This document shows positions 15,637-16,741 of a DNA stretch of 64,000 nt, piece after piece. Each line of letters starts with the position of its first letter. Position 1 is the stretch's first letter. The DNA comes from Trueperaceae bacterium (lineage in GTDB: Bacteria > Deinococcota > Deinococci > Deinococcales > Trueperaceae). A model generated the notes under the pieces. That model saw only the letters and a program-made list of their open reading frames with translations, made no database searches and was not told where the DNA came from. Position numbers and translations under genes: made by a program. The stretch covers positions 3,328,001 through 3,392,000 of the forward strand of contig OZ243913.1 in assembly GCA_965213705.1 (NCBI GenBank), written 5' to 3'.

Positions 15637-15755
15637 GTTTAACGTCTAAGCTCAGCCGCCGTGGGCGGCAGTTCGTTTCAAAGCAGCACGGAGACGCCAA
15701 TGCCGCAAATGAGCAAAACTGCCAAGCCCACGGTCGGCTGCAGCGGGTGTTATGC
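15637..15755 (-). mobile_element. attC integron cassette recombination site (119 bp)
   Basis: Minus strand GCATAAC...GTTAAAC; arms ctgcagccgaccgtgggc-ttggcagtt and aactgccgcccacggcggctgag pair with extrahelical bases; gene stop lies inside R''. Confidence 0.85.
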
Positions 15756-16046
15756 CGCGCTTTCATCGTATCGTCCTCGCCCAAGCGAGAAAAGAACAAA
15801 GTCCGTCGTTGCTGCTACGAGAGAGTCATGCACTATGAGGTGCTGGTATGCTTTGTCATACCAGCCAACCCGAAAAGAACCATCCCGTTCCTCTATGAAG
15901 GTGTTGGGACTACTCCGCTTGTCATAGGAGAAATGCAATAGGCGTTTGCATTCCTCAGGGTGGCTACGGAAGTAGGCAGCGATTTCTTCCGCAGAAAGCG
16001 ATGCCGCGTCAATCTCCAAGGGCGGTAGGTAAGTCGGATGGGGCAT
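15750..16046 (-). CDS. Hypothetical protein carried in an integron-type cassette (98 aa)
   Basis: ORF fills the space between two attC sites; stop TAA is within GCATAAC. Confidence 0.7.
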   Translation of the reverse strand: MPHPTYLPPLEIDAASLSAEEIAAYFRSHPEECKRLLHFSYDKRSSPNTFIEERDGSFRVGWYDKAYQHLIVHDSLVAATTDFVLFSLGRGRYDESAA

Positions 16047-16062
16047 AGTTAAGCACCGCACG

Positions 16063-16176
16063 GCATAACGGCCTAAGCTCAGGGGTTCGGACGTGTTGAA
16101 GATGCAAGTCATGCTCTAAATCTGCGCTAGATTTTCGGCAGGGCGAATCCGAATCCTTTGCAGCGCCTAGTTATGC
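16063..16176 (-). mobile_element. attC integron cassette recombination site (114 bp)
   Basis: Minus strand GCATAAC taggcgctgcaaaggattcgga...tccgaacccctgagcttaggcc GTTATGC; complementary R boxes, bulged base in L''. Confidence 0.85.
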
Positions 16177-16350
16177 ACGACCTGACGTAACAACTGCAAG
16201 CTGAGGCAGTGGTTTTGAAACGAGTCTCGTTTTCAAGTCGCTTTGAGTTTCAAGCGCACGCTGGTAAAGCGTTGACAGGTCGTGATTAGCTTCTTTCTCG
16301 AGTTCAAGCCGCGCTTCACGAACTTCTTCGACAACTACATCTTCCCACAT
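16171..16350 (-). CDS. Small protein typical of genes downstream of PIN-domain toxins (putative antitoxin), 59 aa
   Basis: MWEDVVVEEVREAR..L...NHDL pattern; GGAGGT RBS; stop lies in attC R''. Confidence 0.65.
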   Translation of the reverse strand: MWEDVVVEEVREARLELEKEANHDLSTLYQRALETQSDLKTRLVSKPLPQLAVVTSGRA

Positions 16351-16352
16351 AC

Positions 16353-16436
16353 TTACACCTCCATGAGTTCTTGTGGTGTACACAGAACCGGCGTGTGAAC
16401 GTTTAAGTCCTGGTTAAGTGCTTGCACCAGAGGGCG
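16353..16436 (-). pseudogene. C-terminal 27-aa remnant of a PIN-domain (VapC-like) toxin
   Basis: Manual translation RPLVQALNQDLNVHTPVLCTPQELMEV*; the P.lCTP.EL ending is typical of this family; in-frame stop directly upstream. Confidence 0.65.
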
Positions 16437-16449
16437 TTAACAGAAATAC

Positions 16450-16507
16450 TAGCCTGAGTGCTGAAATCTTGATGGGTGTATTTGCAAGATTTGATACTTG
16501 CTGGCTA
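16450..16507 (-). terminator. Hairpin downstream of the tRNA-like RNA
   Basis: tagcc/ggcta and aaatcttg/caagattt stems followed by tatttctgtt on the minus strand. Confidence 0.4.
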
Positions 16508-16514
16508 AGTGAGG

Positions 16515-16629
16515 TGAGGAAGGCAGGATTCGAACCTGCGACATGCTTCTCGTTACGCTCTCTGAGAAAACATGCAACCGTCGCTCTGTTTGGAGTTGAC
16601 AGCTACCTTCTCCGCTCAGTCACTTCCTC
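16515..16629 (-). ncRNA. Irregular tRNA-like RNA (115 nt): canonical acceptor, D and T arms, 15-nt anticodon loop, very long variable arm
   Basis: GAGGAAG/CTTCCTC acceptor plus A73; D arm ACTGAGCGGAGAAGGT; T arm GCAGG-TTCGAAT-CCTGC; stem GCTGTC/GACGGT; V arm GCATGTTTTCTC/GAGAAGCATGT. Confidence 0.75.
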
Positions 16630-16741
16630 ATTCTTGACGAATAGCCTACAAATTAATCACTTTGGCGCGGCGTGAAAAGTCCGCTGGACGAAGTGTAAAT
16701 TAAGTCTCACGTAACAAGCCTTTCTTCTTGGGCAATTCGCT

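Follow-up and report, generated by a model that had tools for sequence, protein, structure and literature searches.

A serine-type tRNA-like RNA gene in a cassette array of a Trueperaceae genome, with relatives in integron cassettes

The RNA gene and the patch that holds it

The window analysed here is a stretch of 64,000 nt from a Trueperaceae genome (assembly GCA_965213705.1, contig OZ243913.1, positions 3,328,001 to 3,392,000) whose host belongs to the same order as Deinococcus. Between a gene for a VWA-domain protein and a BrxC-like gene we found a 1.1-kb patch carrying a tRNA-like RNA gene of 115 nt, a truncated PIN-domain toxin gene with its small partner, and a hypothetical gene whose 98-aa product has no Pfam or NCBIfam family (its nearest Atlas clusters are unnamed, score 0.90) (Table 1). 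Since the patch has two attC-like sites and no integron integrase was found in the host genome (no TIGR02249 match above the cut-off), we regard it as an integrase-less (CALIN-type) cassette array.

Table 1. Features of the cassette patch in the window, and tRNA mimics of Deinococcus
Feature	Position	Strand	Basis or comparison
tRNA-like RNA gene, 115 nt, serine-type core, 7/5 acceptor/T branch	16515..16629	-	Rfam RF00005
D arm: A10-U25, C11-G24, U12-G23, G15, G18G19; serine-type layout	16605..16620	-	host class II tRNAs
Extended anticodon arm, 27 nt	16577..16603	-	prediction and alignment of four copies
Variable arm, 35 nt: 11 bp, one bulge, 12-nt loop	16541..16575	-	
T arm, GCAGG-UUCGAAU-CCUGC	16523..16539	-	
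Leader, 35 nt, common to metagenome copies	16630..16664	-	
Downstream imperfect hairpin (inner 8-bp stem 16492-16464)	16448..16508	-	
PIN-domain toxin gene, 3' remnant, 25 codons and stop	16353..16430	-	alignment to intact 157-aa gene in sister species G001 (L243)
59-aa PIN partner, intact	16171..16350	-	95% identical in G001
attC-like site 1, R'' GCATAAC, R' GTTATGC	16063..16176	-	
98-aa hypothetical gene cassette	15750..16046	-	
attC-like site 2, right end of variable patch	15637..15755	-	
Deinococcus mimics	L163:1489-1614, L164:1489-1615, L165, L167:1488-1614, L166:1489-1616		

The sister species G001 rejoins the window sequence at attC-like site 2, the last attC end. At the same intergenic site (window 16741-15637; C7:321914-323350, L027, in G001) it has different cassette cargo, which we take to be a HicB-like fragment and a small toxin-antitoxin-like pair, so that this is a hot spot without an integrase. 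An earlier note on this DNA had placed the RNA beside a PIN toxin-antitoxin module. The 59-aa partner, likely the antitoxin, is indeed intact, and it also follows the PIN genes at L243, L244, L246 and L247, but the PIN gene itself is down to 25 of its 157 codons: the first 130 or so are missing, homology begins at 16430, and the match to PF01850 is weak and below the cut-off. G001 carries the intact 157-aa PIN gene with its 59-aa partner as an attC-bounded cassette at another locus, without the RNA, and no match to the RNA was found in that genome by BLAST, by pattern or with the covariance model R1 described below. Because the PIN gene is truncated here and its intact cassette in G001 lacks the RNA, comparison of the two sequences suggests that RNA and PIN remnant were likely joined by a deletion in the window genome. 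The copy in the window has lost both cassette boundaries: the nine bases with which the cassettes of the metagenome copies X3 and X5 start (see below) are replaced, and the downstream attC is either absent or truncated where the PIN remnant joins. The assembly is backed here by one 421-nt contig from the likely source sequencing run. The flanks of the RNA gave no match better than E 0.2 in five relatives.

The RNA begins 112 nt after a gene on the same strand, with no terminator called between them. In the metagenome copies described below its leader follows the cassette start GTTATAT, a boundary that is lost in the window; the leader may hold a weak promoter, and a promoter scan called none in it. 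The downstream hairpin, described before as terminator-like, has an AU-rich 8-bp stem without a U run and was not called as a terminator; the first 25 nt or so of this region resemble the trailer of one metagenome copy, X5. The surroundings, also called AT-rich, are so only mildly (46-50% GC vs 61%).

The RNA itself can largely be read from the sequence. A perfect 7-bp acceptor (GAGGAAG/CTTCCTC) is followed by discriminator A73 and then CCU (16514-16512) rather than an encoded CCA, and the class II D arm, the perfect T arm and the variable-arm hairpin of about 35 nt are all as the note had them. With G18G19, U54U55C56 and A58 the molecule has the acceptor, D and T arms of a canonical tRNA, but not the 5-bp anticodon stem, 7-nt loop and U33 of one that decodes: its anticodon arm is a stem of 5-6 bp followed by an internal loop, a 3-bp helix and a 6-nt apical loop, and position 33 is A or G in all four full copies known to us. 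The match to Rfam RF00005 scores 39.0 bits (gathering cut-off 29 bits; E 1.1e-4 over the window), leaving 53 nt in the middle of the RNA unaligned, and the D-loop-to-T-arm frame with so wide a spacer is found a single time in the 4.25-Mb genome; the cloverleaf is thus real. RF00005 was the only family listed up to E 10, in a listing that omits one lower-scoring overlapping clan match. ARAGORN, on the other hand, did not call the RNA as a tRNA. A TROVE/Ro60 gene, whose absence had been noted for the window, was not found in the host genome either (0 matches in a genome 98% complete; the control matches in D. radiodurans).

The host already has four tRNA-Ser and five tRNA-Leu genes as well as genes for tRNA-Tyr and tRNA-Trp, and the 115-nt RNA is therefore an extra. 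Compared with the host class II tRNAs its core is of the serine type (G15, G18G19, G15-C48, and a variable arm paired right up to C48 without an unpaired base), and it departs from the host tRNA-Ser by having A2-U71 and A73 and by not encoding CCA. Among the identity elements of tRNA-Ser, the long variable arm in serine orientation and G1-C72 are present, while G2-C71 and G73 are absent (A2-U71, A73). No parent tRNA with the same acceptor was found in the host genome, nor was a duplicate of the 3' end of the RNA (best other match, 19/21 nt). Outside the window, ARAGORN identifies two standard tmRNA genes in the host genome (C1:2604421-2604788 and 4112539-4112901), each encoding its own tag peptide, and it calls a doubtful permuted tmRNA as well.

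The anticodon arm contains the heptamer CTCCAAA, identical to the loop of the host tRNA-Trp; some anticodon heptamer of the host turns up in 1.8% of shuffled loops (p about 0.02). The identity pointed out in the note thus holds, but not the open 15-nt loop in which it was placed: inside that loop CUC pairs with GAG (predicted pair probability 0.98) and this inner helix covaries among the relatives, so that half of the heptamer is buried in pairs and its U does not occupy position 33. An intron was considered and rejected, as a 7-nt loop around CUCCAAA would form only if 3 nt were lost from one flank and 7 nt from the opposite one. We also rejected an 8-bp acceptor, since the -1/73 pair is not kept in the close copies (change at 16630). 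The nearest-neighbour model prefers an alternative pairing of the D and variable arms, with the cloverleaf 3.9 kcal/mol above the minimum, a probability of 0.01 for the D stem and 0.03-0.06 for the variable stem, and z = -1.72. As predicted elements, the D and variable arms have comparative support only, and energy alone does not favour them.

Close copies and distant relatives

Three sequencing runs from three studies (macroalgae, sediment and biofilm according to their records) contain one contig each with a copy 90-95% alike. The aligned span (16512-16664 or 16660) corresponds to the RNA and its 35-nt leader. Inside the RNA, the listed changes in all three copies are restricted to positions 64, 68, 73, 74 and 77, with none in positions 1-63; all five are in the distal part of the variable arm (Fisher p 6e-4 to 9e-4), although each copy has a further 5-7 differences that could not be placed; these lie no more than about 28 nt from the ends of the alignment and leave the T arm and the 3' side of the acceptor unchecked. 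Four of the five positions belong to the loop of the variable arm; the fifth change, at 64, eliminates or displaces the bulge, as judged by hand. The 27-nt anticodon arm, CUCCAAA included, has no listed change in any of the three. Detection of these copies relied on 31-mers in common, a method biased towards a conserved block; their depth is 2-5, and they have most of their changes in common.

More distant relatives came from a scan of a genome collection with a tighter pattern, which gave five loci, two of them in the family: L209 (Rhodothermales) and L208 (Balneolaceae). Recall was incomplete, as the scan recovered two of five fitting Deinococcus loci; one unpublished genome (G033) enters the tallies only. 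At the acceptor and T-stem positions not fixed by the pattern, L209 has the same acceptor and the same start of the T stem as the window RNA (10/10) and L208 agrees at 8/10, against a median of 3 among the 72 other long Ser-core RNAs listed. Both share with the window RNA an arm plan (a 5-bp stem, C and a purine facing a purine, and a short helix) seen in 5 of the 73 sequences listed. A covariance model built from these three copies, R1, found a fourth, L266 in genome G470, at 102.5 bits, compared with at most 63.4 for ordinary 91-nt tRNAs (151 genomes). L266 has a mismatch in the T stem and is the ortholog of L208 (Balneolaceae); both are chromosomal and begin 6 nt after the stop codon of iscA on the same strand, and no attC was seen beside either.

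When the four full copies are aligned, 95.7% of the cells are paired (slid controls, 39-53%). Two-sided changes occur in 10 of the 29 pairs, four of them in the extended anticodon arm, and none of 500 shuffles reached this level; the sample is four sequences, two of them orthologs, and hence holds few independent events. With a leave-one-out model, R2, the window copy ranked first among the non-training matches at 60.9 bits, 1.7 bits above an ordinary 89-nt class II tRNA (59.2) and 5 bits above the next mimic. The acceptor, the D/T elbow bases, the long variable arm and the lengthened anticodon arm are kept across the copies, with an invariant D arm, the 7/5 acceptor/T branch and A2-U71 in all four, and G15-C48 in place of the leucine A15-U48. 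The apical loop (4, 6, 6 and 9 nt) and the discriminator (A, U, C and U) vary, G73 is absent throughout, and L209 encodes U73-CCA.

The family signature was found in 1 of 331 Deinococcota and 3 of 401 Bacteroidota genomes and had no matches in viral contigs. None of L208, L209 and L266 reaches an Rfam cut-off. BLAST of the RNA against 61 relatives, phages and plasmids returned T-arm matches only, as did L209 as the query; exact D-loop and acceptor patterns in viral contigs (10, 1, 21, 3, 6 and 0 matches) yielded no family member, and a metagenome scan for the RNA gave 16 matches, none with an intact acceptor. Relaxed patterns in 161 and 201 genomes recovered only the seed and missed G470 with its T-stem mismatch. 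With R1, neither 127 other genomes of the host family nor 49 others of the L209 family yielded a member, and one screen of sequencing runs had no holder of the RNA among the matches listed. No description of these RNAs was found in a search of open-access literature that covered main texts. The window RNA thus belongs to a small, rare and apparently undescribed RNA family.

The central idea of the earlier note is supported: compensatory changes among the homologs and close-copy changes at the tip of the variable arm point to a maintained, non-translating mimic instead of a randomly decayed tRNA. We consider it very probable that the RNA is real and maintained. The proposed link to the adjacent PIN module is not supported, given the PIN remnant, the G001 PIN cassette without the RNA, and the lack of PIN genes at L209, L208 and L266.

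Integron cargo and a wider class of mimics

At L209 the RNA is the sole content between two attC sites, the upstream R' (GTTCTGC) being the exact complement of the downstream R'' (GCAGAAC). Between the R boxes there are about 50 nt of leader, the RNA and about 9 nt, and an N-terminal fragment of IntI lies upstream on the opposite strand (E 2e-21). Two of the metagenome copies, X3 and X5, have the right end of an attC just upstream of the leader, in X3 of the same style as the host's own attC. Both have GTTATATCG as their start, and their sequences diverge immediately before it, as expected at an IntI crossover. In total, three of the seven known copies have a cassette boundary, one (the window) lies in a broken array, one is on a contig too short to tell, and two are chromosomal. 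We conclude with considerable confidence that the RNA moves as an integron cassette, the main point and one that the earlier note had missed. Cassettes without an ORF but with promoter activity, and the cassette RNA sRNA-Xcc1, have been described (PMC8876359, PMC6557892); the word tRNA is absent from the text of these two papers and of bioRxiv 2023.11.21.568050, and no paper on an integron with a tRNA-like RNA and attC was found in the literature search.

The family is one member of a wider class of long Ser-core RNAs lacking an anticodon. A generic pattern (a serine-type D loop, 52-82 nt, and a T loop) had at least 120 matches in viral contigs; among the 120 listed, the acceptor, D and T stems are all intact in 74. 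A normal 7-nt loop with U33 is present in only 4 of the 73 distinct intact-stem sequences listed, viral and bacterial. As far as can be judged from sequence, such RNAs are common in phages. The viral ones listed score at most 63.7 bits with R1, and none is in the family of the window RNA. Within the viral set (L043-L162), one sub-family has a conserved UGA...GAUA after the D arm (L054, L076, L082, L102 and L116) and another a GGAAGG acceptor (L047, L066, L104 and L122).

Another Ser-core mimic is found in 5 of 364 genomes of the Deinococcus family (Table 1). Its anticodon arm is a rod of roughly 60 nt with compensatory changes; four of the five copies adjoin an aconitase gene, and L163 and L166 reach no Rfam cut-off. 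With so much longer an anticodon arm and 40-54 bits with R1, these loci were excluded as family members. Other irregular forms occur as well. L210:2994-3113 (Methyloceanibacter) is a Ser-core RNA whose anticodon arm (loop UUUAGGU) is of normal size and whose variable region is branched and very long, and L002 has at about 1490-1600 (G002:C77) an irregular tRNA-like sequence in an AT-rich tRNA cluster, missed by ARAGORN. At L193, L196, L199, L200 and L207 a repeated element of about 100 nt terminates with a T arm and a 3' end like that of a tRNA; one metagenome contig carries three copies, and no intact acceptor was seen in the register used.

Possible function and comparison with known systems

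In the reading that we prefer, a serine-tRNA-shaped RNA gene rides an integrase-less cassette array in the window and its relatives stand at the start of integron cassettes. The RNA would be transcribed and then trimmed by the tRNA-processing enzymes of the host, with RNase P cleavage and 3' processing with CCA repair both predicted; since a 7-bp acceptor ranks among the main determinants for RNase P (PMC4201824), the transcript is likely to be processed into a stable RNA. The product would be unable to decode and would have little or no charging, and would most plausibly serve as bait for proteins that grip the acceptor end, the elbow or the long variable arm, candidate targets being tRNA-attacking toxins or phage-defence effectors. 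We are nearly certain that the RNA does not decode, since the varying apical loop, variable-arm tip and discriminator exclude decoding and argue against a single amino-acid identity, and a kept shape with an unkept loop and discriminator fits recognition by shape. An origin from tRNA-Ser is inferred. A decoy seems preferable because the cassette arrays here are full of toxin-antitoxin genes and because toxins that read the acceptor end are known, some with a preference for tRNA-Ser (PMC11541572, PMC11245113); no toxin or defence gene recurs beside the copies. This function in toxin or phage conflict is put forward tentatively, as is the best overall explanation that we can offer, namely a processed, cassette-borne serine-type RNA whose anticodon arm has no anticodon loop and which is a putative decoy.

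The main rival to a decoy is a cis-acting cassette that punctuates or promotes transcription: RNase P and a 3' nuclease, attracted by the tRNA shape, would cut the long transcript of the array or of iscA, and the cassette, with or without a promoter of its own, would reset the stability and expression of its neighbours, the released RNA being a by-product. The two Balneolaceae copies right behind iscA fit this, and so does the window copy with its same-strand upstream gene and no terminator called. RNase P-type cleavage requires only the acceptor and the T arm, and these determinants leave unexplained both the unchanged 27-nt anticodon arm of the close copies and the internal loop and covarying inner helix shared across phyla. 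We therefore hold punctuation to be unlikely, even if ORF-less cassettes with promoter activity exist (PMC8876359, PMC6557892) and a 7-bp acceptor is one of the main features that RNase P reads (PMC4201824). Less probable is a charged mimic like the allo-tRNAs, onto which SerRS or LeuRS, enzymes that ignore the anticodon, would load an amino acid and which would tie up EF-Tu or the amino acid, or be mildly toxic. Serine identity resides mainly in the long variable arm, here without an unpaired base, A73 is the key leucine element (PMC9976931), L209 encodes CCA, and some irregular tRNAs near toxin-antitoxin systems are charged but unused, or toxic (PMC5389517). However, G2-C71 is conserved in most bacterial tRNA-Ser and the leucine pair is A15-U48 (PMC9976931), while all four copies have A2-U71, none has G73, the pair at 15-48 is G-C, and the discriminators differ.

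A functionless tRNA-Ser pseudogene hitchhiking on mobile DNA would explain why the family is so rare and patchy, the narrow R2 margin, the broken array around the window copy and the T-stem mismatch of L266. It is nevertheless improbable in the face of helices intact through compensatory changes across two phyla, close-copy changes confined to a loop, a cassette at L209 holding nothing but the RNA, and a host without a parent tRNA with such an acceptor. The canonical T arm, together with the 3' side of the acceptor, could in principle be a spare landing pad for tRNA-targeting integrases, and the pseudo-tRNA tRNA-Other does flank a genomic island (PMC3399842); we consider this very improbable here, as the genome has no duplicated 3' end, conservation covers the 5' half, and no integrase or island lies beside any copy except IntI. 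Equally improbable is an RNA devoted to the adjacent PIN toxin, as its decoy, antitoxin or substrate, with CUCCAAA as the bait. Apart from physical adjacency, it has in its favour the match of the heptamer to the host tRNA-Trp and its lack of change in the three close copies, but the heptamer is predicted to be half paired, the distant copies have neither PIN nor heptamer, and what is adjacent is a 25-codon remnant of a gene whose intact cassette in G001 travels without the RNA.

If the reading as a decoy cassette is true, this would be the first tRNA-shaped integron cassette and would offer a handle on the large class of anticodon-less tRNA mimics in phages. The usual view of cassettes without an ORF is that they are empty or serve as promoters, and the window gene escapes tRNA finders, which suggests that RNA cargo in integrons is overlooked. 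The compact attC-RNA-attC unit is in effect a ready-made natural expression module that makes the function of a mimic testable. The broader proposal, that integrons carry a protein-free cassette making a tRNA decoy that passes between phyla via attC and is sometimes domesticated on the chromosome, is rather doubtful.

Among known systems, tmRNA has a tRNA-like domain with a G3-U70 pair and no D stem; the window RNA has G3-C70 and a D stem, and the tmRNA genes of the host are located elsewhere. tRNA-Sec has an 8/5 branch and a UCA anticodon, as opposed to a 7/5 branch, no UCA loop and a best Rfam match to RF00005. With canonical tRNA-Ser (RF00005) the window RNA shares the 7/5 branch, the D-arm layout, G15-C48 and a stacked long variable arm without an unpaired base; it differs in its 27-nt anticodon arm, 35-nt variable arm, A2-U71, A73 and absence of CCA, and in being accessory and mobile. 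YrlA and other Y RNAs (RF02553; PMC4201824) likewise mimic the D and T arms and the elbow, and one is cut by RNase P and gains CCA, yet YrlA as described there is permuted, with T before D, has a Ro60-binding stem and lies near rsr, whereas the window RNA keeps the tRNA order, has no YrlA match up to E 10 and comes from a host without a TROVE match. Allo-tRNAs and irregular polycistronic tRNAs (Mukai et al., PMC5389517) resemble it in their serine-like long variable arm, mobile context and proximity to toxin-antitoxin genes, some being inactive in translation. Allo-tRNAs have 8/4 or 9/3 branches with anticodons, unlike the 7/5 window RNA without one, and the main passages on irregular tRNAs do not mention integron cassettes; Figures S5-S6 of that work show further irregular 7/5 forms, which may be related to the window RNA and bear on its novelty.

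The ORF-less cassettes, sRNA-Xcc1 included, are also attC-bounded and carry an RNA or a promoter, but those described in the main text of PMC8876359 and PMC6557892 include no tRNA-shaped cassette like that of L209. tRNA-Other of Bacillus cereus is a non-translating tRNA-like element tied to mobile DNA; as described (PMC3399842), it is set apart from the cassette-borne window RNA by flanking an island within a longer regulatory RNA. The T4 RNAs C and D (PMC9697503) are phage tRNA-like RNAs from the broad Ser/Leu-core class with odd anticodon arms. By analogy, the window RNA would work most like these last two, the non-translating tRNA look-alikes tRNA-Other or T4 RNA C/D; a non-decoding tRNA mimic is a kind of RNA already known, and what is new here is its vehicle, the integron cassette.
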